NCBI GenBank assembly: GCA_023267555.1
Contig: JAHFMZ010000001.1
Location: 1 to 62,436 of the forward strand
Source: a bacterium
GTDB lineage: Bacteria > Patescibacteriota > Minisyncoccia > Phycocordibacterales > UBA5272
Length of the DNA: 62,436 nt
Direction: 5' to 3'
The notes below the pieces were generated by a model. The model did no database searches. It saw only the letters and a list, made by a program, of their open reading frames with translations, and was not told the DNA's origin. Below are positions 2,435-46,638 of this stretch, one piece after another (the stretch's first letter is position 1; every line of letters starts with the position of its first letter). Made by a program: the position numbers and the translations under genes.

Positions 2435-3568
2435 ATGCCTCGTCATATTCCTTCATTTTTTCGCACAGTTGATGCAACTCTTTTTGCATCCATTATTTGT
2501 GTTTTAGTCGCAGGATTACTCACAATGAGTTCTTTTCAATTACACGATAGTTATTTTTGGAGACAAGGTTTATGGATTATTGTCGCATTAAGTGCTTTTA
2601 TTTTTGCTTCACGATTTGAATATCGTTTTCTTAAACAAACACGTATTGTAGTTGCTATTTATTTTGTATTATTATTTATACTCACACTCATTCTTGTTGT
2701 GGGCCATATTTCAAAAGGGGCACAAAGTTGGTTTCAATTCGCAGGAGTTGCTTTTCAACCGAGTGACGTGATGAAGCTTGGATTGATTATTGTTCTGGCT
2801 AAATATTTTTCACGTCGCCACGTAGAAATTGCAAACATTCGTCATATTATTGTTTCTGGTGTATATGCTTTTATACCTTTTGTATTAGTTATACTACAAC
2901 CCGATTTGGGTTCTGCACTGGTCTTATTTTCGATTTGGCTTGGTATGGTGCTAGTATCTGGTATTTCAAAAAAACATCTTTTTGCTGTGATTGCTATTGG
3001 AATTATTTCTTTTTCTCTTGCTTGGAAACTTGTTTTCAAACCATATCAAAAAGCACGCATAATGAATTTTGTTTACCCACTTCAAGATATACGTGGCACG
3101 GGTTATAACGCTTATCAATCGACTATTGCAGTTGGTTCTGGAGGTTTGATTGGTAAAGGACTTGGTTATGGTACTCAATCACGTCTTAATTTTCTTCCAG
3201 AATATAAAACAGATTTTATTTTTGCAGCTTATGCCGAAGAATGGGGATTTATTGGTGCTTGCATCTTGCTTCTTTTTTATGCGCTTATTCTTTATAAAAT
3301 TGCCACTTATGCGCTTGTTGCTGATTCAACTTTTGAAGCTTTATTTACCTATGGAGTATTCGTTTGGTTTCTCACACATATTGTAATTAATGTTGGTATG
3401 AATATTGGTATTATGCCAGTGACAGGTATTCCACTTCCGTTTATGAGTTATGGTGGATCACATATTCTTGCAGAGTGTGTGGCGTTAGGTATATGTGCAG
3501 GGATGTATAGGTATTCACGCGCTGGCCACAAATATCAACTCCAAAATGAATTCCTTGGCCTCGAATAA
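2435..3568 (+). CDS. FtsW/RodA/SpoVE (SEDS) family peptidoglycan glycosyltransferase
   Basis: Multi-TM protein with SEDS motifs QPSDVMKLGLIIVLAKYF, LQPDLGSALV, GSGGLIGKGLGYGTQSRLNFLPEYKTDFIFA and PLPFMSYGGSH. Confidence 0.85.
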   Translation: MPRHIPSFFRTVDATLFASIICVLVAGLLTMSSFQLHDSYFWRQGLWIIVALSAFIFASRFEYRFLKQTRIVVAIYFVLLFILTLILVVGHISKGAQSWFQFAGVAFQPSDVMKLGLIIVLAKYFSRRHVEIANIRHIIVSGVYAFIPFVLVILQPDLGSALVLFSIWLGMVLVSGISKKHLFAVIAIGIISFSLAWKLVFKPYQKARIMNFVYPLQDIRGTGYNAYQSTIAVGSGGLIGKGLGYGTQSRLNFLPEYKTDFIFAAYAEEWGFIGACILLLFYALILYKIATYALVADSTFEALFTYGVFVWFLTHIVINVGMNIGIMPVTGIPLPFMSYGGSHILAECVALGICAGMYRYSRAGHKYQLQNEFLGLE

Positions 3569-3571
3569 AAT

Positions 3572-3696
3572 AAAACGGCAAAAATCATCCCATCTACTTT
3601 GTCGCTACGGAATTGTTCTTAGTCAACGTACTACCCCGTACGTCTCCTTCGAAAAATTCCTAGGCTTCGCGTATCTGGAATAATTTTTGCCGTTTT
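3572..3696 (+). repeat. stop-codon-proximal ~125-nt imperfect palindrome, copy A
   Basis: Outer arms are AAAACGGCAAAAAT and ATTTTTGCCGTTTT. Motifs are AAAATCATCCCATCTACTTTGTCGC, TCAACGTAC-N6-GTACGTCTCC and GCTTCGCGTATCTGGAATAATTTTT. It starts 4 nt after the SEDS gene stop. Confidence 0.8.
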
Positions 3697-3781
3697 ATGA
3701 GCGGCTTAATTTTGGTCGCAAAAACTTTTCTTGCCTTGTATCTAAAGCAAATTATTCAAGGCCAAACATATTACGATTTAT

Positions 3782-3804
3782 GAGCGACACCGAAGGTGTC
3801 GCTC
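3782..3804. terminator. bidirectional terminator hairpin between convergent genes
   Basis: GAGCGACACC-GAA-GGTGTCGCTC, of the same design as the GAGCGACCAC-GAA-GTGGTCGCTC family. Confidence 0.65.
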
Positions 3805-5056: not shown

Positions 5057-6388
5057 ATGAAATTCCAAAGAAATTTCCATCTCTCCTTTGTCATCATCAC
5101 GGATGTCATTTTTTTAACTTTATCTCTTTATATTGCGCTTTTTTTGCGTAATTTTTTTGATGGTAATACTTTAAATGTTTGGCAACTTTTCTTGGGACAT
5201 ATTTTATATTTCGTACCGCTTTATATTTTAATGATTTCTATTTTATATATTTCTCTTGCATATAGCGATACGACACTTGCTTATTTAAGACGAAGTATTC
5301 CGAAACTTGCAGAATCTTTAACCATCTCTGCAGTCTTTGGTATTTTATATTTTTATATTTTTGCTACTTATTTGCCCATTAGTCCAAAAGTAACATATGC
5401 ATTATTTTTTGCTGTAAGTTTTATTTTGCTTGCTCTTTCTAGAATTGCTTATGCGAAACTTCCTTTACTCGGTGCGCATATAAATGCAGTTGTAATTATA
5501 AAAAGAGGAAGTATTTATGAAAATGTTATTCAAGAAGTGGGAATGAATGCTCCGAGAGCAACTTTTACTCGTGTCACAGAGTTCACAACAAAAAGTGTGG
5601 CGGATTTATTGTCAAAAAGTGGAGCAAGTTTAATCGTTTATGATAATACCGACAAAGAAATTGTTCAATTAATTTCAATGTTGCCGACACATATAATTCG
5701 TTATGCCACAGTCCTTTCGGGAGATATTTTGTATGAACATATTTTTGGTAAAATATTTCTTCCAGCATTTAATGAAGAATCACTTCTTCGTGATTATTTA
5801 AATCAAAAGCCATTTTATGAAATTATTAAACGACTTTTTGATTTAATTATTGCTATACCATTTTTTATTATCACAATTCCTTTTATTGTTGTTGGAATTA
5901 TAGCTATATATATTGAAACTGGACGTCCAGCATTTATTTTTCAAGAACGTTTAGGGGTTGGTCGCAAAATTATGCGTATTCCAAAGTTACGTTCTATGTC
6001 ACAAAATGTAAATGGTGCGTGGGTTGGGGAAGGGGAAAATAAAGTAACCAAAGTTGGAGCATTTTTGAGAAAGACTAGAATAGATGAGTTACCACAACTT
6101 TGGTCTGTAATGAAAGGTGATATGTCGCTCATTGGTCCTCGTCCAGATATGACAGGATTAGAAGCTCGTCTGCGTGAAGAAATTGATTTTTATCACGCTC
6201 GTTATACTGTTCCACCAGGATTATCTGGTTGGGCGCAAGTTACACAAGTCGCTGTTCCTCAAAATGTCGAAGAAACTCGTGAACGTTTTGCTTATGATAT
6301 GTATTATATTAAATATCGTTCTATGTTTTTAGATTTTGGTATTGCTCTTAAGACAGTTCGTATTCTTCTTTCTCGAATGGGACATTAA
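5057..6388 (+). CDS. polyprenyl-phosphate glycosylphosphotransferase (bacterial sugar transferase, WbaP-like)
   Basis: N-terminal TM helices plus a C-terminal sugar-transferase domain: RIDELPQLWSVMKGDMSLIGPRPDM..PGLSGWAQV. Confidence 0.8.
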   Translation: MKFQRNFHLSFVIITDVIFLTLSLYIALFLRNFFDGNTLNVWQLFLGHILYFVPLYILMISILYISLAYSDTTLAYLRRSIPKLAESLTISAVFGILYFYIFATYLPISPKVTYALFFAVSFILLALSRIAYAKLPLLGAHINAVVIIKRGSIYENVIQEVGMNAPRATFTRVTEFTTKSVADLLSKSGASLIVYDNTDKEIVQLISMLPTHIIRYATVLSGDILYEHIFGKIFLPAFNEESLLRDYLNQKPFYEIIKRLFDLIIAIPFFIITIPFIVVGIIAIYIETGRPAFIFQERLGVGRKIMRIPKLRSMSQNVNGAWVGEGENKVTKVGAFLRKTRIDELPQLWSVMKGDMSLIGPRPDMTGLEARLREEIDFYHARYTVPPGLSGWAQVTQVAVPQNVEETRERFAYDMYYIKYRSMFLDFGIALKTVRILLSRMGH

Positions 6389-7619: not shown

Positions 7620-8249
7620 ATGATGCAGATAACAACTAGCGCTCGCGCTCCAAAAGAAATCAAAAGAGAAGGCTTTATTCCTGCTGTTTATTATGGCGCA
7701 CACCAAGCTTCTACTCCAATTTTTATTGATGCAATTGAATTTAAAAAAGTGAATGCTGCGGTCGGAGAATCAGGTTCTATTGTCCTTGTTACAGAGCACG
7801 GAAATGAAAACGCTATGATTCAAGATGTACAAGTTGACCCAGTAAAAGGTTTTCCAATACACGTAGATTTTTATACTCTTGAAAAGGGTCAAAAAGTTCA
7901 CGTTAAGACTCCGATTACTATTGTTGGGGAATCCCAAGCTGTGAAAGATGGCGGTGTTCTAGTAAAAGTATTGCACGAACTTTCTGTTGAAGGTGATCCA
8001 GCAAAACTTCCTCACGAGTTTACAGTTGATATTTCATCACTTGTTACAAAAGATGACGTTATTCACGTGCGCGATATCAAACTTCCAGCTGGTGTAGAAC
8101 TTTATCACGTAACTTTAGATGATGTTGTTGTTTCTATCACTGAAGCCAAGGAAGAAGTGGAAGAAGTTCCAGTTGCTACTGATTTGAGTGCAATTGAGGT
8201 AGAAGAGAAGGGAAAGAAGGAAGAAGAAGCCGAAGTCCCAGCTGAATAA
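7620..8249 (+). CDS. rplY: 50S ribosomal protein L25/Ctc
   Basis: REGFIPAVYYG..VQVDPVKGFPIHVDFY, with an acidic C-terminal tail; typical Ctc-form L25. Confidence 0.85.
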   Translation: MMQITTSARAPKEIKREGFIPAVYYGAHQASTPIFIDAIEFKKVNAAVGESGSIVLVTEHGNENAMIQDVQVDPVKGFPIHVDFYTLEKGQKVHVKTPITIVGESQAVKDGGVLVKVLHELSVEGDPAKLPHEFTVDISSLVTKDDVIHVRDIKLPAGVELYHVTLDDVVVSITEAKEEVEEVPVATDLSAIEVEEKGKKEEEAEVPAE

Positions 8250-8254
8250 TACAC

Positions 8255-8376
8255 CGATCCATAAATTGGCGACCTGCTTGATGATTTTTGAAAAAAGTTT
8301 TTCAACGTACACGCTAGTACGTCTCTAAACTTTTTTCAAAAATCATCTGCACACCTCATCCAATTTCTGGATTGGC
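8255..8376 (+). repeat. stop-codon-proximal imperfect palindrome, copy B
   Basis: Perfect 21-bp arms GATGATTTTTGAAAAAAGTTT and AAACTTTTTTCAAAAATCATC flank TTCAACGTAC-ACGCTA-GTACGTCTCT. It starts 6 nt after the rplY stop. Confidence 0.75.
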
Positions 8377-8405
8377 TAACGTTGTTCAAGAAAATTCAAA
8401 TACAA

Positions 8406-8440
8406 TACAAAGAGCGACCACGAAGTGGTCGCTCTTTGTA
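8406..8440 (+). terminator. terminator hairpin with core GAGCGACCAC-GAA-GTGGTCGCTC (copy 1 of 3 identical cores)
   Basis: 16-bp perfect stem TACAAAGAGCGACCAC/GTGGTCGCTCTTTGTA with a GAA loop, followed by a T-rich tract. Confidence 0.75.
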
Positions 8441-8549
8441 TTTCTCTCACCTTTATTTCTCTTGACTCTATTCTGTTAATACGTGTGGACAACCATTTAG
8501 ATATTATCTCTACGTAGGGGTATAATAAAAGTAATAAATATCAAATAAT

Positions 8550-9176: not shown

Positions 9177-10022
9177 ATGTCTCTCAAAAAATTGTCACAA
9201 TTAAATATAATAAAATCAGGAGTATTGTTTGTGCTTCTCATTTCATCATTCTTTTTAGGGAATACAAAAGTAGAAGCAGGTGCTGTGTCGTGGGGAGTTG
9301 TCAATGAAGTTTGCTTTGGTTATGATACTACCGCAAGAACCGGAGGGTGGGTTTATACTGATTGGGGAGATCAGTATGTTACTTACCCGGAACCTTTATT
9401 CTCAACTAGTTTTGGTGATGCGACTTTAACACAGCTCTCAGCTTATTTCCAAGAATATCCTATAATCAAACCGGGAACACTTTATTATTATGAAATAATG
9501 ACTAGCGATGGACCTGTTACTTCATACTTTCCTAATTCTGCTTGTAAAGGTGTCGAAAGTACACATTATTTTGCTGCAAATACCAGTAAGCAGATAGACG
9601 AATATGCTCCGGGCGAAACAATAACTGCTTCTCTCGGTGCAAACTCTTCTGGTGGATACACACAAGGTGGATGGAGTGGTTTTACAACTAGTCTTCTATG
9701 GAATCCTATTACTGGACCTATTAGTTGTTTCCTTTTTGGTTGTGATTCTCCACCATATGTTAGAGTGCTTGCTAGTGTGCAAGGACAGTATATTGCTGAT
9801 TGTCACGGTGATGGTACAGCTGGATGTTCGGGTACAATAAATACTCCCAGTGTTCCACTTGCCCCAGGGAGTTACAATCTTCATCTTGAAGGATGCTATA
9901 TAAACTGTTCACCTGTCGGCACTGCAGATATTCCTTTTGTTGTAACTACTCCTGCTGTACCTACTGTTCAATTAAATTTCAGTTTTTTGGATAAAATAAA
10001 ATCTTCTCTAGGAATAATATAG
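9177..10022 (+). CDS. hypothetical secreted protein
   Basis: 281-aa ORF with a signal-like N-terminus (GVLFVLLISSFFLGNTKVEA), several Cys and a Gly/Thr-rich region. Confidence 0.6.
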   Translation: MSLKKLSQLNIIKSGVLFVLLISSFFLGNTKVEAGAVSWGVVNEVCFGYDTTARTGGWVYTDWGDQYVTYPEPLFSTSFGDATLTQLSAYFQEYPIIKPGTLYYYEIMTSDGPVTSYFPNSACKGVESTHYFAANTSKQIDEYAPGETITASLGANSSGGYTQGGWSGFTTSLLWNPITGPISCFLFGCDSPPYVRVLASVQGQYIADCHGDGTAGCSGTINTPSVPLAPGSYNLHLEGCYINCSPVGTADIPFVVTTPAVPTVQLNFSFLDKIKSSLGII

Positions 10023-10039
10023 GGTTGGAAATAATTACT

Positions 10040-10068
10040 AATGAGCGACCACGAAGTGGTCGCTCATT
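10040..10068 (+). terminator. terminator hairpin with core GAGCGACCAC-GAA-GTGGTCGCTC (copy 2)
   Basis: AATGAGCGACCAC-GAA-GTGGTCGCTCATT, 18 nt after the stop at 10022. Confidence 0.75.
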
Positions 10069-10170
10069 GTAATTGTATTTACTCTCGACTCTCTCCTCTA
10101 AACTCTTAACTATTATTTGTCCACACCTGTAATATATACGATAGAATGAACCTAGCGTATACTAAAATCA

Positions 10171-12589: not shown

Positions 12590-12620
12590 TAAAGAGCGAC
12601 CACGAAGTGGTCGCTCTTTA
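12590..12620 (+). terminator. terminator hairpin with core GAGCGACCAC-GAA-GTGGTCGCTC (copy 3)
   Basis: TAAAGAGCGACCAC-GAA-GTGGTCGCTCTTTA. Confidence 0.75.
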
Positions 12621-12640
12621 ATGTTTTATATATTACGATA

Positions 12641-12765
12641 GCCAATTCAAAAATTATTTCAGATACGCGAAGCCTAAGGATTTTTTGAGAGAGGTGTACT
12701 TAAATGTACAGTGAATGAGAAAAATCCTGTAGCGACAAAGTAGATGGAATGATTTTAGAATTGGT
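12641..12765 (-). repeat. imperfect palindrome of the same family, copy C (inverted orientation)
   Basis: The reverse complement reads AAAATCATTCCATCTACTTTGTCGCTACAGG..TGTAC-ATTTAA-GTACA..TAGGCTTCGCGTATCTGAAATAATTTTT. Outer arms are GCCAATTC and GAATTGG. Confidence 0.75.
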
Positions 12766-12810
12766 TCATTATTTGTAACAACAATGACCTAGATTTGGTA
12801 TACTATATTT

Positions 12811-14221: not shown

Positions 14222-14431
14222 ATGAAATCAGAAATTCATCCAACATATTTTGAAAAAGCAACCGCAACTTGTGCTTGTGGTGCCAAATATACTGTTGGCT
14301 CAACAAAAGAAAAGATAGAAGTTGAAATCTGTCAGGCTTGTCATCCTTTTTATACGGGGCTAGAAAAAGTACTCGATACAACCGGACGTGTCGACAAATT
14401 CAAAAAACGTTCTGCAGCAGCTAAAAAATAA
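14222..14431 (+). CDS. rpmE: 50S ribosomal protein L31
   Basis: MKSEIHPTYFE..CACGAKY..CQACHPFYTG. Confidence 0.9.
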   Translation: MKSEIHPTYFEKATATCACGAKYTVGSTKEKIEVEICQACHPFYTGLEKVLDTTGRVDKFKKRSAAAKK

Positions 14432-14539
14432 CTCATCTGCTTTGTTAAAAGGCGCAGTTCCTCGTCAACGTACTACGCGTACGCCTCCATCGGAACTGCG
14501 CCTTTTGCCGCGCATCTGAATCATTTTTTAACTGCTGCG
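14412..14539 (+). repeat. stop-codon-proximal imperfect palindrome, copy D (5' arm overlaps the last codons of rpmE)
   Basis: Outer pairing is TCTGCAGCAGCTAAAAAATAACTCATCTGC with GCATCTGAATCATTTTTTAACTGCTGCGA. Inner pairing is AAAAGGCGCAGTTCC with GGAACTGCGCCTTTT. Centre is GTCAACGTAC-TACGC-GTACGCCTCC. Confidence 0.75.
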
Positions 14540-14570
14540 AAATACTTCAAATTATTTTGCTATACTAACA

Positions 14571-15545
14571 ATGATTATGAATTTAGAAGACTTTAAAAAT
14601 AATCCTCGCACTGCCTATCTCGCCCAAGAATACGAGCGACTTTTGAATGCAAAAAATGAAGCAGAGCAACTTCTCGTAGATGAGTCGATGAAAGAGTTAG
14701 CTCAAAGTGAAATAGATACTCTTACTCCACAAATAGAATCTCTTTGGAAACAAATGGAAGACATCGCAACAGTTGCCAAAGAAGAAGATGCCAAACCCAA
14801 AGCGATGATTTTGGAAATCTCAGCTGGTGCAGGCGGAGACGAGTCCACACTTTTTGCTGCCGAACTCGCTTCTGCATATTCACTTTATTGTGAAGCACAC
14901 AAAATTGGTTTTGAAAAAGTTGACGATTCACAAAGTGAAGTCGGTGGATATAAATATGCTTCTTTTGAAATCAAAGGCAAAGACGCGTGGGATACATTTA
15001 AATATGAAAGTGGAGTGCATCGTGTACAGCGTATTCCAGATACTGAAAAAAACGGTCGCGTGCATACTTCCACCATCACTGTTTCGGTTATGCCTATTCG
15101 TGAACAAAAAAAGGTGACAATCAATCCCGCCGATTTAGAAATCGAAACGTCACGCTCAGGTGGTGCTGGTGGACAAAATGTAAACAAAGTCGAAACAGCT
15201 GTGCGCGTGATACACAAGCCGACAGGCATCGCCATTCGTTGTACTATCGAACGCAGTCAATTAAAAAATAAAGAACGTGCACTTCAAATGCTTCAAGCCA
15301 AACTCGATCAATTAGAAGCCGAAAGAGAAGGTACAGATTTTCGTGGAGAGAAGCGTTCGCAAGTTGGTACAGGTGATAGAAGTGAAAAAATCAGAACATA
15401 TAATTTCCCACAAGACCGCGTGACCGACCATCGTATCAAAGAATCCTGGCACGGCTTACCAAAAATTATGGAAGGCAACCTCGACCCAATCTTCACCGCT
15501 CTCCAAAACTTCCAAGGCGACTTCACTGAAGGGGATGAAGAGTAA
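14571..15545 (+). CDS. prfA: peptide chain release factor 1
   Basis: GGQ motif [18 protein letters not shown], and a P-x-T type tripeptide ([14 protein letters not shown]) aligned to the RF1 PAT motif. Shorter N-terminus than usual. Confidence 0.8.
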
Positions 15546-15582
15546 AGCTTTACAAAGTTGTTACAAGGTGTAGTATTGCGGT

Positions 15583-16230
15583 ATGAATAATACAGATATA
15601 TTTTTTCAGTTATCTTCAGCGATTGCGACAGTTTTAACAGCGGGTGTTGCATATTGGTTGTACAGGTTACAAAAAAATGCTGACTTTGAAAGTGGGGCAA
15701 GAATTGTTGTTTTGGAAATAAAAGAAGCTGAAAAAACAATAAGAGCTCTCTTGGAAATAAGAAATAGCGCTCCTGATGTTAACGCTACTATATATCCTGA
15801 AGACGTTGTTAAGATTGTTCCTAATAAATCTTGGAATAAATATTCTCATTTTTTCATAAAAAAACTTTCCAATGACGAATATGATTTAATAAATAATTTT
15901 TATAGCCAGTGTAGTTTACTAGAAAAATATTTAGAAAAAAATTCTCAATTTTTCTGGATTTCTGCAGAAGAAAGGGCAAGGTTAGCAGAAATCGTAGCAT
16001 CTAAAATAGCACACGAGTATTCATCCAAGGATACAGCACCAACAATTGAGCAAATAAACGCCGAGTTTGTTAATTATGAAAAGTTATTTTATGCTATGAA
16101 TTCACTTTATAGGCCACAGAGAACTACTACTAGTATAAATAAGTTACTTTCGTCTGTTGAATTTATATCTAGAACAACAGCTTGGAACTCATTAAAAAAA
16201 CTTGCCGATTATAAAGATGTTTTAGGGTGA
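15583..16230 (+). CDS. hypothetical protein with an N-terminal TM helix
   Basis: 215-aa ORF. No family recognised. Confidence 0.55.
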   Translation: MNNTDIFFQLSSAIATVLTAGVAYWLYRLQKNADFESGARIVVLEIKEAEKTIRALLEIRNSAPDVNATIYPEDVVKIVPNKSWNKYSHFFIKKLSNDEYDLINNFYSQCSLLEKYLEKNSQFFWISAEERARLAEIVASKIAHEYSSKDTAPTIEQINAEFVNYEKLFYAMNSLYRPQRTTTSINKLLSSVEFISRTTAWNSLKKLADYKDVLG

Positions 16231-16485
16231 TTTCATTCTCGGTATTCCCAAACCCCTAATTCTGTGCTAGAATAGTCATATTCATCCAATCGGGCAAATC
16301 AGGATTTGGACACCTGAGCATACTCATCCGCGCATTACAGACGCTTGCAAAACTTGCATTAAGGAGGACGAGTACTGTGGCACGAGGCAAATGTTTATTA
16401 TTAAAAAATAATGTTTTAGAATTTTGTATTGGGTGTTTGTATTTACTACTTTCTACCTTCTTCTTTCTACTACACTAATCAACTT

Positions 16486-17166
16486 ATGTCATCAAATATA
16501 ACAACGGAGGCACTAAAAAATGCAGGTCTCCAATATGGATACTCACGTACTCGTCGTCACCCATCTACAAAACCTTTTATTGAAGGTAATCATAATGGTG
16601 TCGATTTTATCAATCTCGAAAAAACACAAGAGCAGTTAGAAAATGCTTTAACTTTCCTTTCTTCTATGAAGAATGCTGGTAAGGTTATTCTTTTTGTCGG
16701 TGTAAAGCCAGAAATTCGTCAAATCGTAAAAGAAGTTGCTCTTTCATTAAATGCACCATACATCGCAGAAAGATTTATTGGTGGTACACTCACAAATTTT
16801 CCACAAATCAAGAAGCGTATTGAAAAGTTGCACGAACTTTTGAAGAAAAAGGAAACAGGAGAGCTCAATGTTTATACAAAAAAGGAACAGCTACTCATTC
16901 AACGCGACATAGACAGACTAGACCGTGATTTCGGTGGTATTTCTTCACTTACAAATATCCCTCACGCTATTGTTGTGATCGATCCACGTCACGAAGATAT
17001 GTGTATCAAGGAAGCAAAACGTCTCCACATACCTGTGGTTGCACTTTCAAACACTGATTGTAAAATAGATGGTATAGAGTATCCAATCGTTGGAAATGAC
17101 GGTTCAGTCTCTTCTATCCGTTTTGTACTTGAAGCAATCAAGGAAGCTCTCCAAATCGAAGCATAA
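16486..17166 (+). CDS. rpsB: 30S ribosomal protein S2
   Basis: S2-like GLQYGYSRTRRHPSTKPFI..VDFINLEKT..ILFVGVK..VVIDPRHEDMCIKEAKRLHIPVVALSNTD. The ATG at 16486 is preferred over the TTG-started extension. Confidence 0.85.
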   Translation: MSSNITTEALKNAGLQYGYSRTRRHPSTKPFIEGNHNGVDFINLEKTQEQLENALTFLSSMKNAGKVILFVGVKPEIRQIVKEVALSLNAPYIAERFIGGTLTNFPQIKKRIEKLHELLKKKETGELNVYTKKEQLLIQRDIDRLDRDFGGISSLTNIPHAIVVIDPRHEDMCIKEAKRLHIPVVALSNTDCKIDGIEYPIVGNDGSVSSIRFVLEAIKEALQIEA

Positions 17167-17194: not shown

Positions 17195-17665
17195 ATGGAC
17201 ATAATCAAAGAACTCCGCGAAGAAACAGGCTTATCTTTTGCTCAAATCAAGAAAGCTCTCGATGAAGCAAATGGTGACAAAGAAAAAGCTCGCACAATAC
17301 TTTCAGCCTATTCATCTACTCAAGCCGAAAAGAAAGCCGACCGCGAATTGGGTGCCGGTATTGTTTCTTCATATATACATTCAACTGGAACAGTTGGAGT
17401 GTTGCTAGAGCTTGGTTGCGAAACAGATTTCGTTGCCAAGAATGAAGAATTCAAAACTTTAGCCCACGATATTGCTATGCATATTTGTGCTATGTCTCCG
17501 ACATCAATCAACAATGAAGATGGTGCCGGTGAAGAAACTGCACTTATGAAGCAACCGTTTATAAAAAATCCAGAAACAACTGTCGAGCAAAAGATTCAAG
17601 CAGCGATACAAAAGTTTGGTGAAAATACAAAAGTAATAAAATTTGTCCGTTATAGTATCTTCTAG
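17195..17665 (+). CDS. tsf: elongation factor Ts (short form)
   Basis: UBA-like N-terminus MDIIKELREETGLSFAQIKKALDEANGDKEKA, then GVLLELGCETDFVAKNEEF. Only 156 aa. Confidence 0.85.
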   Translation: MDIIKELREETGLSFAQIKKALDEANGDKEKARTILSAYSSTQAEKKADRELGAGIVSSYIHSTGTVGVLLELGCETDFVAKNEEFKTLAHDIAMHICAMSPTSINNEDGAGEETALMKQPFIKNPETTVEQKIQAAIQKFGENTKVIKFVRYSIF

Positions 17666-17675
17666 ATATATAAAT

Positions 17676-18065
17676 ATGTTACTACTCATTTTATTAATAA
17701 GCGGAATACTAGTCGCAATCGGTGCGTCACTTATTCTCGTGATTCAATATTATCGTGTAAAACTAGGAGTAGTTAAAATTGATCCAAAATATAATGGTCC
17801 AGCACAAGTATCAAAAACTTTGCACGCCATCATTCGTTATTTACTTAGACGAAGTGTTCATTTTAGAAAGTTTATGATGCAATACATAGCACACTTGGCT
17901 GTGCGTGTGATGTATTACATCGACAAATTGTCTACACATTTATATTCACGTTCACGAAATTGGTTTGTGCAAAATGCCGTGCGAAACAGAGGGACAGTGC
18001 CACATTTTTGGGAACATTTGAAAGTTTATAAGCAAGAGATGGATCGTGAGCGTGAAGAAGAATAG
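17676..18065 (+). CDS. hypothetical small membrane protein
   Basis: Internal ATG gives MLLLILLISGILVAIGASLILVI (TM helix). The longer ORF would overlap the tsf stop. Confidence 0.5.
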   Translation: MLLLILLISGILVAIGASLILVIQYYRVKLGVVKIDPKYNGPAQVSKTLHAIIRYLLRRSVHFRKFMMQYIAHLAVRVMYYIDKLSTHLYSRSRNWFVQNAVRNRGTVPHFWEHLKVYKQEMDREREEE

Positions 18066-18073
18066 CTCCTGCT

Positions 18074-18188
18074 TCCAAAATTACTTCATCTTCGTTGTTG
18101 CGGGTCCCTGCGAGATCGTCATCGTACTATTAAGTACGTCTCCTCGTTCGCTTTCCCGCGCCTAGAATCTAAAGCAATTTTTGAAACG
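18074..18188 (+). repeat. stop-codon-proximal imperfect palindrome, copy E
   Basis: CCAAAATTACTTCATCTTCGTTGTTGCGGGTCCC..GTCATCGTAC-TATTAA-GTACGTCTCC..GCCTAGAATCTAAAGCAATTTTTG. Confidence 0.65.
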
Positions 18189-18263
18189 GCTGACGTAGTT
18201 CTGTTGGGGTGACAAAATAATGAAAAAATGATAGGATATTGTATATTGTTTCAGTGTTAATAT

Positions 18264-18371: not shown

Positions 18372-18447
18372 GCCGCTTTAGCTCAGTTGGTAGAGCAACG
18401 GTTTTGTAAACCGTAGGTCCTCAGTTCGAATCTGAGAAGCGGCTCCA
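18372..18447 (+). tRNA. tRNA-Thr (anticodon UGU), CCA encoded
   Basis: GCCGCTT-TA-GCTC-AGTTGGTA-GAGC-A-ACGGT-TTTGTAA-ACCGT-AGGTC-CTCAG-TTCGAAT-CTGAG-AAGCGGC-T-CCA. Confidence 0.9.
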
Positions 18448-27324: not shown

Positions 27325-29421
<2,097 letters not shown>

Positions 29422-29424
<3 letters not shown>

Positions 29425-29546
29425 AGCCAAAAAATTATCCAATCTACTTTGTCGCGATAACTTTTTTCTTAGTCAACGTACATTTAGGTACGTCTCCCTC
29501 GAAAAAAATTATCGCTTTGCGTATCTTGAACAATTTTTTGGCTTTA
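29422..29546 (+). repeat. stop-codon-proximal imperfect palindrome, copy F (starts on the gyrB stop codon)
   Basis: Outer arms TAAAGCCAAAAAATT and AATTTTTTGGCTTTA. Motifs ATCCAATCTACTTTGTCGC, AGTCAACGTAC-ATTTAG-GTACGTCTCC and GCTTTGCGTATCTTGAACAATTTTT. Inner helix GCGATAA..TTATCGC. Confidence 0.8.
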
Positions 29547-29580
29547 GAACCTTCGTTTTGGAAAAGCTTTTCTATACAAC

Positions 29581-31341
29581 CTACAACCTACCCTTAATTT
29601 CAGTATTTAATTTTTCTGCGAGTTCACTGATTTTCATCTCACCTATTTTACCAAGAGTGCGATGTTCGAGTGTAATTGTTCCATTGGTAACTTCTGCATC
29701 TCCAATCACTGCCCAGTATGGAGTTTTCATTTCTCGAGTGTTACGAATCTTTTTACCAAGACCTTCTCTAGAATTATCAAGTGTTACACGAATATCTGAA
29801 TTTTGTAATTCATTAAATATAGTTTCTGCGTATTCATTATGTTTATCTGTGATTGGAAGTATAGTAATTTGATTTGGAGATAGCCAAAGAGGGAAATTAC
29901 CAGCGAAGTGTTCTATCATCACACCCATAAATCTTTCTAGTGAACCAGCTATAGCTCGATGTATCACAACTGGTCTTTCTTTTTTACCTTCAGCATTTAT
30001 GAAATTCAAATCAAATCTTTCTGGAAGATTAAAATCACATTGTATTGTGGCTAGTTGCCATTCACGACCGATTGCGTCTTTAAACATAAAGTCCAATTTT
30101 GGTCCATAAAAAGCTGCCTCGCCCTCAACTTTTTTATAATTAAGTTTATTTGCTTTTGCTGCTTCTTCCAAAGAAGTTTCTGCAAGGTTCCAAGCGTCAT
30201 CTTCTCCAAGATATTTACTTCTATCATCTCCTCGAACAGAAAGTGATACCCAATATCCATCCAACATATTCATAGTTGTATAAAATTCTTTGATGATACC
30301 AACGATAGTAGAGACTTCTTCTTTTATTTGTGATTGTGCGCAAAAAAGATGTCCGTCATCTTGGGTGATAGCACGCACACGAAGTAGTCCTCCTAATTGT
30401 CCAGACTTTTCATCACGATAGACGGTGGCTGGTTCAAAGTATCGTACTGGCATATCTCTGTATGAAAATTGATTGTCCGCAAAGATTTGCATATGATGTG
30501 GACAATTCATTGGTTTCATAATAAATTTATCTTCTTTACCTTGTACACGAAAAAGTTCATCACCAAATTTTGCAGCGTGTCCTGATGTTTCATATAGTGC
30601 TTCTTTTGCAATATGTGGAGTCCATACACGAGAATAACCTTTTTTGCTATGAAGTGACCACAAATAATCTTCAATTTCTTTGCGGATAATCATTCCATTT
30701 GGTTGCATTAGTGGAAGACCGGGACCAATAAGGGGAGAAACAGTAAAAAGTTTTAATTGTGCACCGATAATTCTATGATCTCTTTTCTTCGCTTCTTCTT
30801 GTTGTACTATGTATGCATCAAGTTCTTTTTTATTTTCAAACGCAAGTCCATAAATACGAGTGAGCATTGGTTTTGTTTCATCTCCTCGCCAATACGCACC
30901 AGCTAAATGTGAAAGAGTAAAACAATCGAGTGGAATTTCTTTTGTATTTTCTACGTGAGGTCCTTCACATAAATCAAAAAAGTCATCACCCGTGCGATAA
31001 ATAGTCACTTCATCTCCTTTTTGTGCGATTCCGTCTAAGAGTTCTATTTTGAAAGGATTAAATTCAAAAATAGAACGAGCTTCTTCAATAGAAATAATTT
31101 CTTTTTTAAATGGTAGATGACGTTTGATAATATCTCGCATTGTCTCTTCTACTTTTTTTAAATCTTCTACGCTTATTTTTGTATCATTAGAAAAATCGAT
31201 GTCATAATAAAAACCATTATCTATAACTGGCCCGATAGTGGGTTGCGCGTGAGGAAAATGATGTTTTATGGCCATTAAAAGAATATGCGCCAAAGAATGA
31301 CGTATACGAAAAATAGGGGTTTGCTCGATATTGTTTAACAT
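29581..31341 (-). CDS. thrS: threonine--tRNA ligase (no N-terminal TGS domain)
   Basis: RHSLAHILLMA (editing-domain HxxxH), class II core motifs, and a C-terminal anticodon-binding domain. Confidence 0.9.
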   Translation of the reverse strand: MLNNIEQTPIFRIRHSLAHILLMAIKHHFPHAQPTIGPVIDNGFYYDIDFSNDTKISVEDLKKVEETMRDIIKRHLPFKKEIISIEEARSIFEFNPFKIELLDGIAQKGDEVTIYRTGDDFFDLCEGPHVENTKEIPLDCFTLSHLAGAYWRGDETKPMLTRIYGLAFENKKELDAYIVQQEEAKKRDHRIIGAQLKLFTVSPLIGPGLPLMQPNGMIIRKEIEDYLWSLHSKKGYSRVWTPHIAKEALYETSGHAAKFGDELFRVQGKEDKFIMKPMNCPHHMQIFADNQFSYRDMPVRYFEPATVYRDEKSGQLGGLLRVRAITQDDGHLFCAQSQIKEEVSTIVGIIKEFYTTMNMLDGYWVSLSVRGDDRSKYLGEDDAWNLAETSLEEAAKANKLNYKKVEGEAAFYGPKLDFMFKDAIGREWQLATIQCDFNLPERFDLNFINAEGKKERPVVIHRAIAGSLERFMGVMIEHFAGNFPLWLSPNQITILPITDKHNEYAETIFNELQNSDIRVTLDNSREGLGKKIRNTREMKTPYWAVIGDAEVTNGTITLEHRTLGKIGEMKISELAEKLNTEIKGRL

Positions 31342-33074: not shown

Positions 33075-33161
33075 GGAGACGTCGCATAGCGGCCTAGTGC
33101 ACTACCTTGGAAAGGTAGCAACGGGGTAACTCGTTCGAGAGTTCGAATCTCTCCGTCTCCG
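33075..33161 (+). tRNA. tRNA-Ser (anticodon GGA), class II, no encoded CCA
   Basis: Acceptor GGAGACG/CGTCTCC, G73, anticodon arm CTACC-TTGGAAA-GGTAG, long variable arm, T arm GAGAG-TTCGAAT-CTCTC. Confidence 0.88.
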
Positions 33162-33189
33162 CAAAATAATGAGCTTGTGAATATATTTT

Positions 33190-33297
33190 GCGAGACGGAG
33201 AAAGCCAACTGCTTGGCTTTCGTAGAGATTCGAATACGGGTCGGAAAATCATCTGCGACGAAGGAGCTGATTTTGTGACCGAATCTCTCCGTCTCCG
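33190..33297 (+). ncRNA. tRNA-trailing tRNA-mimic module (Ser-GGA copy)
   Basis: GAGACGGAG, H1 AAAGCCAA-CTGC-TTGGCTTT, core AGATTCGAATACGGGTCG, H2 GGTCGGAAAATCA../..TGATTTTGTGACC, then CGAATCTCTCCGTCTCCGCAA, identical to the last 21 nt of the tRNA region. Confidence 0.6.
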
Positions 33298-33337
33298 CAA
33301 TGTTTTTAGTATTAGAAGGATTGGATGATATAATAGT

Positions 33338-37956: not shown

Positions 37957-39741
37957 ATGCAACAAGAAATTCGTAATATCGCTATTATAGCTCACGTTGA
38001 CCACGGGAAGACAACGCTTACAGACGCACTTATGCAACAGTGCGGTGTTGGTGTTGCTGGACAAACTATGGATTCTAATCCGATGGAAAAAGAACGAGGT
38101 ATTACAATTACAGCGAAGAATACTTCTGTGCCATATAAAGGTGTGAAAATAAATATTCTAGATACTCCTGGTCACGCAGATTTTGGTTCTGAAGTAGAAC
38201 GTGTACTTCGTTCTATCGACTCTGTTTTACTTGTGGTTGATGCTCAAGAAGGTCCAATGCCACAAACTCGTTTCGTTTTGAAAAAGTCTCTTGAGCTAGG
38301 ACTTAGACCTATTGTGGTTATAAATAAAATTGATAAACCAGCGAGTGATGCCAAGCGTGTACACGACGAAGTGTTTGAACTTTTTATGGAACTTGGAGCC
38401 AATGATGCACAACTAGACTTCACAACTGTGTATGCAATTGGGCGTGAAGGTGTGGCAATGAAAAATCTCGATGATGAAAGAAAAGATTTGACCCCGCTAC
38501 TTGAAGTTATACTCTCAAAAGTACCAAAGGCAACGGGAGATATAAATAATCCATTTGTCGCGCAAGTTTTCAATCTCGCATATGATAATTTTCTAGGACG
38601 TATGGCTATTTGTCGTATTTATGATGGAGTCGCAAAAGTTGGTGAAGAAATTATCGTGAAGAAGCCAACCGGAGAAATACGAAAAGGAAAGATTACAAAG
38701 ATGTTTACATTTAATGGTATTACAAGAATTGATGCACAAACGGCCGAGGCTGGAGACATTGTGATGATTGCAGGATTTGCCGATATTTTTATTGGTGAAA
38801 CATTTGTGAAGAATGAAATGGAAGATGCACTTCCAGCAATTCATATTGATGAACCAACTATTGCACTTAATTTTTTGGTTAATGATAGTCCATTTGCTGG
38901 GAAGGAGGGCAAATTTGTGACTGGTCGTCAGATTCGTGATCGTTTGGAAAAGGAACTCGAAGTAAATGTTGGATTAAAAGTAGATTTTGAAATGGATAAG
39001 TTTTTGGTTTATGGTCGTGGTGAACTTCACATCGCTGTACTTCTAGAAACTATGCGTCGTGAAGGATATGAACTTCAAGTATCACAACCGCAAGTTATTT
39101 TTCACGAGAAAGACGGTGTGAAAGAAGAACCGTATGAAGAACTTGTTATCGATGTTCCTGTTGAATCATCTGGTATTGTAATGGAAAAGCTTGGACGTCG
39201 TAAGGCAATTATTTCTGATATGTCGGAAAAGCACGGAGTGAATCGTATCAAAGCCACAATTCCAACTCGAGGACTTCTTGGTTATCGTGGGGAATTTGTT
39301 ATTGATACAAAAGGTTTGGGTATTTTGTCTGCTCGCTTTTTAAAATTTGGTCCATACGCGGGTACTATTACTCGTCGTCTTGTGGGTTCTATGACATCTA
39401 TGACTGGAGGCAAGTCGTTGGCCTTCTCACTTTGGAATCTTCAAGATAGAGGTGTTATCTATATTCTTCCAACAACAGAAGTTTACGAAGGTATGGTTAT
39501 TGGAAACACTTCAAAAGGGGAAGAAATGATGGTGAATCCAACAAAAGGTAAGCAACTTTCAAATATGCGTTCATCTGGTGCTGACGAAGCCATTGTGCTT
39601 GTTCCTGCTTGGGAAATTACTATTGAACGTGGTCTTGAAATTATGAATGCTGATGAATATTTGGAAGTAACACCAAAGTCTGTGCGTTTACGAAAGCAAT
39701 TACTAACTGAATCTGATCGCGCCAAAGCAAATCGTAAATAA
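37957..39741 (+). CDS. typA: translational GTPase TypA/BipA
   Basis: IRNIAIIAHVDHGKTTLTDALM, DTPGHADF, NKIDK, and BipA-type C-terminal domains. Confidence 0.92.
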   Translation: MQQEIRNIAIIAHVDHGKTTLTDALMQQCGVGVAGQTMDSNPMEKERGITITAKNTSVPYKGVKINILDTPGHADFGSEVERVLRSIDSVLLVVDAQEGPMPQTRFVLKKSLELGLRPIVVINKIDKPASDAKRVHDEVFELFMELGANDAQLDFTTVYAIGREGVAMKNLDDERKDLTPLLEVILSKVPKATGDINNPFVAQVFNLAYDNFLGRMAICRIYDGVAKVGEEIIVKKPTGEIRKGKITKMFTFNGITRIDAQTAEAGDIVMIAGFADIFIGETFVKNEMEDALPAIHIDEPTIALNFLVNDSPFAGKEGKFVTGRQIRDRLEKELEVNVGLKVDFEMDKFLVYGRGELHIAVLLETMRREGYELQVSQPQVIFHEKDGVKEEPYEELVIDVPVESSGIVMEKLGRRKAIISDMSEKHGVNRIKATIPTRGLLGYRGEFVIDTKGLGILSARFLKFGPYAGTITRRLVGSMTSMTGGKSLAFSLWNLQDRGVIYILPTTEVYEGMVIGNTSKGEEMMVNPTKGKQLSNMRSSGADEAIVLVPAWEITIERGLEIMNADEYLEVTPKSVRLRKQLLTESDRAKANRK

Positions 39742-39743
39742 AT

Positions 39744-39790
39744 TGAATCATCTACTTTGTCTCATAGCTGAAACAATTTCTGACTTTTTG
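39744..39790 (+). repeat. partial copy (5' arm only) of the stop-proximal palindrome family, copy G
   Basis: AATCATCTACTTTGTC (39746-39761) directly after the typA stop. No centre or 3' arm was recognised. Confidence 0.45.
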
Positions 39791-39813
39791 GGGTGTATAA
39801 TGTATTTATATTT

Positions 39814-40329
39814 ATGAAAAAAATAAGACTCTCTGTAAAAGAAAAAAAGATAACTCGTGGGGTAATTATCTTTTTCGCTATAGTTTTAGTTCTATATGGA
39901 TATCGTTGTATCTCTGAAAAAGTTTGTGAAGTAGACACAATAAATAAATTTGTTCGTCACGACATCACAATTACTATGCCAAATGGTGCGCTTGTAGCTG
40001 AAGTGGCAGACACCAAAAGTTCTCGTGAGCTTGGATTATCTGGACGTAAAAGTATGCGAGCAAACGAAGGTATGTTGTTTGTGTTTGATGCACCTGGACG
40101 ATATGGTTTTTGGATGAAAGATATGAATTTCCCATTAGATATTCTTTGGATAAATCAAAATGGTTATGTGGTGAGTATTGAATCAGATTTTACTCCAGAG
40201 TCGTATTATCAAAAACCTCCGAAGACAGCTATCAATGGTCCAGAAGCAAGTTATGTTCTTGAAATGAATGCTGGACGCGCCGAAGAGTATGGATTATTTC
40301 TAGGTTCTAGAATTATTATTTCGCAATAA
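39814..40329 (+). CDS. DUF192 domain protein
   Basis: LGLSGRKSMRANEGMLFVFDAPGRYGFWMKDMNFPLDILWI. The ATG at 39814 is preferred over the GTG at 39793. Confidence 0.75.
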   Translation: MKKIRLSVKEKKITRGVIIFFAIVLVLYGYRCISEKVCEVDTINKFVRHDITITMPNGALVAEVADTKSSRELGLSGRKSMRANEGMLFVFDAPGRYGFWMKDMNFPLDILWINQNGYVVSIESDFTPESYYQKPPKTAINGPEASYVLEMNAGRAEEYGLFLGSRIIISQ

Positions 40330-43902: not shown

Positions 43903-43910
43903 AGAAATCT

Positions 43911-43990
43911 CCAAAATCATTTCATCTACTTCGTTACGGGTCCCAAGTTTCTCAGTTAACTTACAGACGATATCTTCTTTGATTTTTTAT
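43911..43990 (+). repeat. shortened copy of the stop-proximal palindrome family, copy H
   Basis: CCAAAATCATTTCATCTACTTCGTTACGGGTCCC (compare copy E) .. GATATCTTCTTTGATTTT (compare the 3' arm of copy F). The central GTAC hairpin is missing. Confidence 0.5.
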
Positions 43991-44934: not shown

Positions 44935-45149
44935 AATCACTTCATCTGCAAGAATCGGTCACAAAAGCTATTTTAATATTCTGGTCACGAGTTACTAATT
45001 GTGCTAACCACACTACGTGTGGGTTGCTCATAAGTACTCTCGACCCCGCCTCGTGGTTTTGTAAAAGTCAGGAATACAACTTTTACAAAACATCACTGCG
45101 GCCCACAAAACTAAAAATCTTTAGCAGAAAAGATTTTCTTAACGTTTTG
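44935..45149 (-). ncRNA. divergent, longer relative of the tRNA-trailing module (downstream of tRNA-Arg)
   Basis: The minus strand has a hairpin AAAATCTTT-TCTGCT-AAAGATTTT, GGCGGGGTCG, a long arm GGTCGAGAGTACT../..AGTAACTCGTGACC, and GTGACC-GATT-CTTGC, which matches the tRNA-Arg T loop and stem. No acceptor-strand copy is present. Confidence 0.35.
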
Positions 45150-46092: not shown

Positions 46093-46638
46093 TTAAATTG
46101 ACTTCACTTTCAATTTTGTTTGTCTAGCCTTGTCCACCTTCGGTAATCTAATTATCAAAAGTCCGTGCTTTTCTACCGCTTCTGCATCTTCAATTTCTAC
46201 TTCGTGTGGAAGTAAAATCGTTCTTGTGAATGTTCCCCAGTAAAGTTCTTTGTAAAAATAATCATCGTGAGTGATTTGTGTATTACCATCACGTCGTCCT
46301 TTGATAGTAACCATATCACGAGTGATAGAAAGATGAAGATCTTCTGGTTTTACACCTGCCACCATAGCTTCTATGATAATTTCTGTTGGTGTTTGATAAA
46401 CATCGACTGAAAGTTCTCCTTCTTCCATATCAACATCCATATCATCCATATCTTCATTAACCATAGGACTGTGTGCTCGTGCTTTTGTTTGGAGATTTTC
46501 ATTTTTCTTACCTATATGTTTGATAGGTAATTCTTCAGCATCTTCATCTTCTCTACCGAAATCTACAATTTCATCCTCATCATCCACGCTTATAGAACCA
46601 GCGAGACGTTCAAAAAATGATTTTTTTTCTTTAAGCAT
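46093..46638 (-). CDS. Hsp20/alpha-crystallin family small heat-shock protein
   Basis: Alpha-crystallin domain ..VDVYQTPTEIIIEAMVAGVKPEDL..FTRTILLPHEVEIEDAEAVEKHGLLIIRLPK. Confidence 0.8.
   Translation of the reverse strand: MLKEKKSFFERLAGSISVDDEDEIVDFGREDEDAEELPIKHIGKKNENLQTKARAHSPMVNEDMDDMDVDMEEGELSVDVYQTPTEIIIEAMVAGVKPEDLHLSITRDMVTIKGRRDGNTQITHDDYFYKELYWGTFTRTILLPHEVEIEDAEAVEKHGLLIIRLPKVDKARQTKLKVKSI

Follow-up and report, generated by a model that had tools for sequence, protein, structure and literature searches.

What kind of element begins, time after time, at the stop codon of a bacterial gene and folds into one long hairpin? The question is raised by contig JAHFMZ010000001.1 of a patescibacterial genome (assembly GCA_023267555.1), whose 62,436 nt (35.8% G+C) were analysed as a single stretch that we call the window. 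A first-pass annotation, made from the letters of this stretch, had described a repeat family of imperfect palindromes of about 125 nt at the ends of plus-strand genes. In this work we compared these hairpin repeats with related copies from other genomes. We give about an even chance to the reading that the element is a non-autonomous mobile palindrome, defined by its structure and placed at gene ends in one orientation, whose selected single-stranded form would be the bottom strand and which would move through a DNA intermediate with the help of a putative enzyme acting in trans.

A dispersed hairpin of defined length

Six full copies (A to F) and three remnants (G to I) of the family are present in the window, all within a few bases of the positions first reported, as judged by a covariance model (R1) and by inspection (Table 1). 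R1 was built from 25 sequences and run over the whole window with its filters off; it scored the seed copies A, F, C, D, and E at 96-110 bits, gave no full copy beyond A to F, and discriminated between the strands, copy A reaching 110 bits versus 25 bits on the opposite strand. The apex pattern of the element, TCAACGTAC-N5-6-GTACGTCTC, was matched 4 times in the window versus 0.00 times expected from shuffles. By inspection, remnant G has its centre deleted and its 5′ motif joined to the 3′ motif, and remnant H retains the 5′ half up to the apex plus a truncated 3′ stub. The weakest member is fragment I: its 15 nt resemble only the 5′ end of the element, R1 does not match it, and it could be of chance origin.

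Each full copy in the window folds as one long hairpin (fold z-scores of -3.8 to -11.6; for copy A, -41.1 kcal/mol on the sense strand and -57.1 kcal/mol on the complement). The apex, with the core ACGTAC-loop-GTACGT, is nearly invariant, an invariance that is overstated because loci were chosen by the apex motif; the mismatches flanking it are fixed, and the stems vary freely by covariation. In all six window copies the outer stems differ and the centre is conserved. Outer stems are modular, identical cores being found with different outer 6-10 bp (L066:6894 versus L069:1190; L numbers denote loci from other genomes). Across the family the arms measure 49-52 nt. Arm pairing holds at approximately 0.9 for the first 48 nt from the apex motif, drops to 0.5 at 51 nt, and from 52 nt is no higher than background (∼0.35), and the element therefore has a defined length; a palindrome spreading outwards without limit was ruled out by the same measurement. 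The spacing of the outer motifs was 114-117 nt in 22 of the 25 full-pattern matches, which came from Patescibacteria, Treponema, Sporomusa, and Syntrophaceae.

The compensatory helices described in the first-pass annotation were borne out. Among 52 distinct sequences, 93% of cells were paired (59.6% in shuffles), double changes occurred at 23 of 27 pairs, and the covariation score was 0.754, compared with 0.159 in shuffles (0 of 500 reached it) and 0.11-0.22 with the partners slid; this alignment was fitted to the covariance model, and such alignments lean towards the structure of the model. An independent MAFFT/RNAalifold run gave covarying pairs at 21 of 27. In copies with a variant apex, the fourth and fifth stem pairs change by compensation, with GTAC...GTAC constant. 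[quoted passage not shown] The facing, non-complementary motifs noted earlier are real on the sense strand, with conserved A.C, C.U, and U.C oppositions beside the apex and UC/CU in CATCTAC/GTATCTG, the 5′ motif occurring as CATCTAC or CATCTGC. No reading frame of the element is preferentially open or conserved.

The apical loop was compared separately. In three copies with arms 97.5-99.2% identical (L069:7094-7218, L108:5565-5689, and L031:7610-7734), 2-4 of the 6 apical-loop bases differ (CATAAA, CAGGTA, and CGTTAA), and among 32 close pairs the per-site rate of differences in the loop is three times that in the arms. Nitrospira copies have the loop conserved as CGAAGC. In L108, a single case judged by eye, the loop sequence coincides with the flank.

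The family is not confined to the lineage of the window, whose closest relatives bear the labels Candidatus Paceibacterota or Nomurabacteria. One genome per species was scanned with TCAACGTAC-N5-6-GTACGTCTC, and at least 120 loci were taken as 8-kb pieces; almost every apex match was the tip of a hairpin of ∼125 nt, and R1 found about 140 distinct copies in these loci, more than 20 of them without the exact apex. The hosts include Uhrbacteria, Saccharibacteria, and Paceibacterota; Nitrospirota, Nitrospira among them; Desulfobacterales, Syntrophaceae, and Smithellaceae; Treponema, with T. vincentii OMZ 806 represented by its complete genome; uncultured Clostridia; Sporomusa silvacetica DSM 10669; and Bdellovibrionales, Methylomirabilota, Rokubacteria, and Uliginosibacterium. 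Copies were also present in third-party-annotation (TPA) metagenome-assembled genomes labelled "uncultured Gammaproteobacteria" (L004, L007, L021, L041, L042, L052, L076, L078, L088, L094, and L096). Several of these records have copies of the Uhrbacteria type, and three of them (L007, L042, and L096) can be aligned to loci from Patescibacteria; they are probably mislabelled Patescibacteria.

Database searches agreed with the first-pass annotation, which had matched the element to no known REP, BIME, or MITE family and to no ribozyme class. Rfam 15 (4227 models, both strands) gave no match at the gathering threshold on any element in the window or in 18 loci from six phyla, and at E ≤ 10 copy A had only chance-level matches, all of at most 14 bits. 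BLAST against plasmid and phage collections gave no match, and a scan of viral contigs returned one full copy and one apex-only partial match. A full-text literature search with the motif sequences and keywords, in a comparison that did not extend to ISfinder and Dfam, found no description of the family; absence from the searched literature is not proof that the family is undescribed. In Treponema, the element adjoins TD-2 (RF03162) repeats and is distinct from them. Clusters of the two lie at L077 7293-7607, L050 1052-1394, L083 408-507, and L090 1354-1452, and two hairpin repeat families without explanation are thus found in the same intergenic spots.

Table 1. Hairpin elements, their parts, and D2 hairpins in the window. 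Start distances run from the final stop-codon base to the base that opens the interval given in the first-pass annotation, except where R1 is named.
Feature	Position	Strand	R1 match	Start relative to upstream gene	Context
Copy A, full	3571-3699	+	110 bits	4 nt past stop	After SEDS (FtsW/RodA) gene (PF01098), stop 3566-3568
Copy A, 5′ motif	3591-3605
Copy A, apex	3623-3647
Copy A, 3′ motif	3664-3680
Copy B, divergent full	8252-8379	+	50.8 bits (outside seed)	6 nt past stop	After rplY (L25), stop 8247-8249; before D2-type terminator 8408-8450
Copy B, apex	8302-8326
Copy C, full, inverted	12638-12766	-	101.5 bits (minus strand), 17.9 bits (plus strand)	89 nt past a gene	Beyond that gene's D2 terminator (12590-12620); before gene 12811
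Copy D, full	14414-14540	+	98 bits	Overlaps gene end by 20 nt	At rpmE
Copy E, full	18067-18193	+	96.4 bits	9 nt past stop (2 nt by R1 match)	After ORF 17643-18065 (no Pfam match); upstream of tRNA at 18372
Copy E, apex, one mismatch	18119-18143
Copy F, full	29421-29549	+	105.9 bits	Overlaps gene by 3 nt	At gyrB, stop TAA 29422-29424; facing convergent thrS-like gene that ends at 29581
Remnant G	39744-39790	+	Weak, 39731-39820, 16 bits, E = 0.48	3 nt past stop	After typA, stop 39741
Remnant G, 5′ motif, one mismatch	39749-39763
Remnant H	43903-43990	+	43903-43977, 20.7 bits, E = 0.044	9 nt past stop (1 nt by R1 match)	After lepA, stop 43902
Fragment I	44935-44949	+	None	7 nt past stop	AATCACTTCATCTGC; after glutaredoxin gene, stop 44928
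D2 hairpin	1586-1614
D2 hairpin	3782-3804
D2 hairpin	8408-8450
D2 hairpin	10039-10069
D2 hairpin	12590-12620

Stop preference, polymorphic sites, and host codons in the stem

Eight of the nine window copies have the same orientation as the upstream gene, the exception being copy C, and Pfam confirmed the gene names first assigned (SEDS, L25, TypA, LepA, glutaredoxin, GyrB, and L31). The link to stop codons in gene orientation, also claimed at first from the window, holds in about 140 copies from many phyla. A same-strand open reading frame (ORF) of at least 100 codons ended 39-60 nt upstream of the apex in 58 of 142 apex matches, so that the stop codon falls within the stem base or right at it; over the 30-70-nt bins, 60 cases were in gene orientation and 14 were flipped. 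Stop-adjacent copies made up 56 of 130 overall (43%). With gene ends called by greedy ORF heuristics, co-directional contexts contained 58 copies in the orientation of the gene and 26 inverted ones, and the start fell -11 to +17 nt from the upstream gene end in 31 of the 58 sense-oriented copies versus 4 of the 26 inverted ones (Fisher p = 0.0016). Off gene ends, the co-directional copies split into 27 sense and 22 inverted, so there is no general strand bias, and a replication or transcription strand bias was ruled out as the cause of the orientation. Where the neighbouring genes converge, the sense-strand 5′ end of the element lies against either gene end in 14 of 20 cases.

The genes next to an element stop at TAA (19), TAG (17), or TGA (3), against a background of 258, 124, and 141, respectively, in the same loci. 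TAA or TAG is used in 36 of these 39 genes, with TAG enriched (odds ratio 2.5, p = 0.011) and TGA depleted. The gene-sense 5′ end of the element is also found 1-3 nt past the 3′ ends of tRNA genes and, next to opposite-strand tRNAs, 2-7 nt from their 5′ end; the other end of the element is looser. Uhrbacteria contain tRNA clusters interleaved with elements in both orientations (L039 2504-3196 and L071 1440-2043); the spacers are 1-7 nt long, and the elements must therefore belong to the tRNA precursors.

Sites that are filled in one genome and empty in another were found in close relatives. In the window, the gene that ends at 46093 has an ordinary terminator after its stop codon and no element; its orthologue in L035, with an identical C-terminus (KLKVKSI), carries the element directly on the stop codon and has no terminator. 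A second element of L035 adjoins a conserved terminator and has no counterpart in the window. At gyrB, eight related species were compared (GyrB 85-100% identical to that of the window): the stop codon is occupied, always in sense orientation, in the window, L121, L122, and L127, and is empty in L123-L126. The arm sequences of the filled sites differ, the L121 copy being closer by eye to window copy E than to copy F, and the GyrB C-terminus is of equal length in all eight species. In L122 an element separates a C39-peptidase gene from a murC-like gene, and the same junction in the window, L121, and L123 has no element, with the genes 1 nt apart. One Uhrbacteria genome carries two copies 38 kb apart on one contig with arms 99.2% identical, and a third copy on another contig is 97.5-98.3% identical. 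An indel between L023 and L107 was traced to an unrelated transporter gene.

The near-identical Uhrbacteria copies give a precise junction: identity begins exactly at TAG and stops at CTA. All four filled gyrB sites can be written as TA-element-TA, a form that fits the Uhrbacteria copies too; Nitrospira copies have the 5′ TAG without a 3′ TA, and in GAGGAC...GTCCTC variants the terminal dinucleotides act as an inverted repeat, not a direct one. Extra 3′-end remnants (AACAATTTCTGACTT) lie just downstream of the gyrB-associated copies in L121 (∼9290-9310) and L127 (∼5240-5270), which suggests repeated hits or turnover at one site. Insertion of the core into the loop of an existing terminator was dismissed as a general explanation: one element of L035 has an intact terminator beside it, the empty gyrB sites are not palindromic, and the outer stems have no U tracts.

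All-against-all clustering of 3,615 ORFs from 120 loci (8 kb each) gave no partner protein, only ubiquitous ABC transporters recurring, and an apparent protein family in Nitrospira was the element itself in translation. Filled and empty sites, near-identical copies, and no linked protein together indicate a non-autonomous mobile element. In the close relative L122, an Avd-like protein (PF05635/bAvd) and a reverse transcriptase (RVT_1) are encoded near the gyrB region (1875-2234 and 15486-16568); they are parts of a diversity-generating retroelement, and no link to the repeat was shown.

Host codons take part in the outer stem. The 5′ outer arm of copy D (14412-14431) is the native end of rpmE with its stop codon (GCA GCA GCT AAA AAA TAA), complemented by the 3′ outer arm, TTTTTTAACTGCTGC. 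The RpmE tail, KKR-x-AAAKK, belongs to the native protein and recurs in more than 100 homologues. In copy F the stop codon of gyrB forms the first base pairs of the stem. L128, L129, and L131 also have an element after rpmE, and its stem pairs with their own codons, AAG AAG TCA with TGACTTCTT; L130 has a degenerate element there. The gyrB end of L121, ATATTTAA, has its complement in the 3′ flank, TTAAATAT. The arm length is ∼50 nt with or without host codons in the stem, and so the 3′ outer arm must be made from, or corrected against, the 5′ flank. It may arise by templated snap-back synthesis at insertion, by conversion between the palindrome arms, or by selection on each copy.

Strand asymmetry and the competing explanations

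With RNA parameters, the reverse complement was more stable than the sense strand in 130 of 131 copies (mean fold -58.2 versus -46.1 kcal/mol, a difference of ∼12 kcal/mol; 490 versus 211 G.U pairs). With DNA parameters the complement folded better by 2.6-4.7 kcal/mol in six of six window copies. At mostly paired positions, sense-strand oppositions of the type T.C or C.T numbered 412 and the mirror type G.A 28; the corresponding counts were 210 for A.C and 108 for G.T, 85 for T.T and 33 for A.A, and 72 for C.C and 29 for G.G. Pyrimidine-pyrimidine (Y.Y) and A.C mismatches on the sense strand thus become G.A, G.T, and G.G on the complement, the most stable kinds of mismatch. Read on the complement, CAUCUAC/GUAUCUG and the apex-side UCA/CUC form tandem G.A/A.G pairs together with a G.U pair. 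The asymmetry and the folding stability were alike in stop-adjacent and other copies, and the asymmetry is therefore a property of the element and not of its context. It argues against sense-strand RNA as the selected form; complementary-strand DNA and complementary-strand RNA cannot be told apart by it. The suggestion in the first-pass annotation that the facing motifs are sense-strand internal loops suited to protein binding or catalysis was not supported by this comparison, since the loops are G.A and G.U pairs on the more stable strand.

For the mobile palindrome that we favour, these results point to a selected form that would be a single-stranded bottom-strand hairpin, most simply a DNA intermediate of transposition or recombination. 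A putative trans-acting enzyme would read the apex and the internal mismatches and act on the stem base, a set distance away. Insertion would be aimed at the TA of stop codons in one orientation, and the 3′ outer arm would be made or corrected with the 5′ flank as template, by snap-back synthesis or by arm conversion. In mRNA, the weaker sense hairpin would stand between the stop codon and the true terminator, where it would be tolerated and might add to message stability. Copy B is placed after the rplY stop codon and before a D2-type terminator, so its sense hairpin is part of that mRNA, and by analogy with stop-proximal repetitive extragenic palindromes (REPs) it may have side effects there; the rplY site of related species has either the terminator alone or the element plus the terminator. 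The D2 hairpins, GAGCGACCACGAAGTGGTCGCTC with T-rich tails, are a second, near-identical repeat family in the window. They occur beside the 125-nt elements or on their downstream side, look like intrinsic terminators, and have similar counterparts after rplY in relatives.

A number of observations weigh against a mobile palindrome. There is no universal target-site duplication, Patescibacteria having TA...TA and Nitrospira only the 5′ TAG. Conservation is lowest at the ends and highest in the centre, opposite to the pattern of classical MITEs, and a near-invariant apex across phyla is unusual for selfish repeats, even if the motif-based choice of loci overstates it. No transposase, integrase, or reverse transcriptase linked to the element was found in the 8-kb pieces, and the gene ends behind the stop preference come from ORF heuristics, not annotation. 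The rpmE site is occupied in five related genomes (one copy being degenerate) with an outer stem that tracks the codons of each lineage, a pattern that could equally fit selection in place, i.e., a function for the host. A bolder form of the mobile reading, which we consider rather doubtful, is that the element represents an undescribed, structure-specific class of mobile element that seeks gene ends, is active as a bottom-strand hairpin recognised at the apex that the phyla share, and has its outer stem rewritten at each insertion from the last host codons, through inverted copying of this template out to ∼50 nt from the apex. If true, this would mean a new insertion chemistry based on single-stranded DNA or reverse transcription, and an enzyme behind it.

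Selection in place would be expected of a host-useful, cis-acting sense RNA in the 3′ untranslated region (UTR) of mRNA, serving as an exonuclease block, a processing mark, a protein-binding site, or a means of tuning translation termination, roles of the sort that REP hairpins of E. coli have when they lie within 15 nt of a stop codon. The co-transcribed copy B between the rplY stop codon and its terminator, the strictly sense orientation at gene ends, the lineage-fitted stems at rpmE in the five genomes, and the ribosome stalling reported for stop-proximal REPs (PMC12306157) are all consistent with such an RNA. It is nevertheless unlikely: the sense strand is the poorer folder in all copies but one, with the most destabilising Y.Y and A.C oppositions even at variable positions, stability is the same in adjacent and non-adjacent copies, ∼57% of copies lie off gene ends and have no orientation preference, the sites are polymorphic among close relatives, and a scan for terminator-like hairpins flags the D2 family and not the elements. 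The folding advantage of 12 kcal/mol would instead suit an RNA made from the complementary strand, either a terminator or insulator against antisense or convergent transcription or a structured small RNA that stands by itself. Structured RNA typically has G.U and tandem G.A pairs, copies A and F face convergent genes, and in AT-rich genomes the complement of Lys codons plus stop codon supplies a U-rich tract after the hairpin (copies A and D). That tract is absent in GC-rich hosts, however, no promoter travels with the element, most copies lie in co-directional arrays where the complement has no obvious transcript, and non-adjacent copies have no orientation preference relative to the flanking genes; we regard this explanation as quite unlikely.

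A recombination site of the integron attC type, with gene plus element as a cassette-like unit and a tyrosine recombinase reading the folded bottom strand, would account for the position at the 3′ end of an ORF, the overlap with the stop codon, the fixed orientation relative to the ORF, the variable sequence with conserved imperfections, and the better-folding bottom strand; Treponema, where chromosomal integrons occur, in addition carries the element beside TD-2 repeats. We consider it very improbable, because the base of the hairpin is variable, lacks RYYYAAC/GTTRRRY boxes, and stands opposite a conserved apex, the neighbours in the window are scattered housekeeping genes and not arrays, no protein family recurs in 120 loci, the Pfam listings of L121-L131 contain no integrase, and tRNA genes are also among the neighbours of the element. 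A catalytic RNA, such as a self-cleaving ribozyme, built around the facing motifs is hardly credible from the sequences at hand. The conserved nucleotides do cluster in internal loops across phyla and the length is strictly conserved, but no Rfam ribozyme model matches even at E ≤ 10, the genomic behaviour is that of mobile DNA, and the conserved "loops" are regular non-canonical pairs on the other strand and so look structural rather than catalytic.

Whatever its mode of action, this is a large cross-phylum family, common in the reduced genomes of Patescibacteria and with no Rfam match. It adds ∼125 nt to the 3′ UTR of essential genes, among them gyrB, rpmE, rplY, and a SEDS gene, and has left remnants after lepA and typA. 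Since the stop codon and the last codons can be inside the stem, gene callers, terminator predictors, and screens for non-coding RNA will misread such sites. The family bears on how small, transposase-free palindromes spread and find gene ends, and has for such work a precise junction, a fixed length, an asymmetry between the strands, and two hosts that can be cultivated (Treponema vincentii and Sporomusa silvacetica). Copying of the outer stem from the target, if it takes place, would be a new mechanism, one with interest for programmable insertion.

Elsewhere in the window, the 3′ part of a 23S rRNA gene (1-1086) spans 1086 nt and covers only 419 model positions. Compared by BLAST with another 23S rRNA it matches at 10-113 and 792-981; an insertion of ∼680 nt without an ORF of at least 60 amino acids is implied, probably an rRNA intervening sequence or intron of the candidate phyla radiation (CPR) type. 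A tRNA gene sits between the 23S and 5S rRNA genes (1340-1410 and 1436-1544). A direct repeat of 200 nt with 90% identity (33099-33298 and 57363-57562) overlaps or adjoins two tRNA genes of 87 nt (33075-33161 and 57338-57425).

Comparison with known systems

Two identities were tried and rejected. In TIGR-Tas systems, box C (RUGAUGA) and box D (CUGA) of the tigRNA flank two spacers, in arrays next to tas (bioRxiv 10.64898/2026.09.09.750476). By inspection, the element has no RUGAUGA, CUGA only in some 3′ motifs, no 3-nt bulge in its tandem G.A pairs, and dispersed units. An intrinsic terminator is a short G+C-rich stem-loop with a U tract immediately after it on the transcribed strand; the element has no such defining U tract, and a consensus scan flagged the D2 hairpins and no element; its only overlap with an element was a 17-nt hairpin (3689-3705) straddling the 3′ end of copy A, and copy B has a separate terminator 30 nt downstream. 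TD-1 and TD-2 of Treponema (Rfam CL00124) resemble the element in being multi-copy, hairpin-like, without an assigned function, and found in the same intergenic clusters, but the element does not match the TD-2 model and is a separate family adjoining TD-2 copies.

Rickettsia palindromic elements (RPEs) are ∼100-150 bp long, occur in reduced genomes, and are inserted in frame inside ORFs, to which they contribute codons. The element shares with them a repeated palindrome of similar size that can contribute codons to host genes. Unlike RPEs, it has no preferred frame, lies at or after the stop codon, and leaves host C-termini unchanged at filled sites. The IS200/IS605-derived PATE elements have subterminal hairpins at both ends and insert 3′ of a fixed tetra- or pentanucleotide, strand-specifically and without duplication. 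The one-sided 5′ flank (TAG/TAA), the lack of a general duplication, and the strand specificity of the element fit this pattern, whereas its single long hairpin does not, nor does a better-folding strand opposite to the strand with the 5′ flank motif.

Integron attC sites follow ORFs in a fixed orientation, often overlap the stop codon, measure 57-141 nt, and are active on the bottom strand, which is the better-folding one; Treponema is a genus with chromosomal integrons. Position at the 3′ end of an ORF, fixed orientation, definition by a structure with imperfections, the bottom strand, and a length of 125 nt within the attC range are all shared. The element differs in having no R and L boxes, cassette arrays, or intI, in its housekeeping and tRNA gene neighbours, and in a variable base with a conserved apex, the reverse of attC. 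Hairpin MITEs with TA duplication (ERIC/IRU, Correia/NEMIS, and IS630-related) are ∼100-170 bp long, co-transcribed, and polymorphic between strains. MITEs of the DDE type are marked by terminal inverted repeats common to the copies in a genome and by a target-site duplication of fixed length. The element resembles them in size, imperfect palindromy, polymorphic sites, and the TA at both ends of patescibacterial copies. It departs from them in that the terminal inverted repeats are not conserved between copies of one genome, Nitrospira copies have no 3′ TA, the orientation at gene ends is strict, host codons are part of the stem, and the family is cross-phylum and not lineage-specific.

REPs and REPINs are mobilised by RAYT (IS200/IS605-type Y1) transposases, which recognise single-stranded hairpin DNA and whose gene has the repeats on its flanks, and are inserted without flanking duplication. 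A REP unit is 20-40 nt long with GTAG (or CGTC) at one end and often occurs in inverted doublets (PMC3733652); many REPs of E. coli lie within 15 nt of stop codons (PMC3733652, PMC12306157), and REPINs are long hairpins with pairing preserved (PMC3116915). Like these, the element is an interspersed, non-coding extragenic palindrome found mostly downstream of genes. It is, by contrast, a single 125-nt hairpin and not 20-40-nt units or doublets, and it has no GTAG or CGTC end tag, GTAG being present only on the complement of CATCTAC variants; the apex rather than the ends is conserved, and one core sequence extends across phyla. A RAYT gene was not seen for the element within the very limited genome coverage of the 8-kb pieces. 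Although it lacks defining features of attC sites, of REPs and REPINs, and of hairpin MITEs, the element shares positional and strand traits with attC, and it works most like REPs, REPINs, and hairpin MITEs, because it is defined by its structure and not by its terminal sequence.

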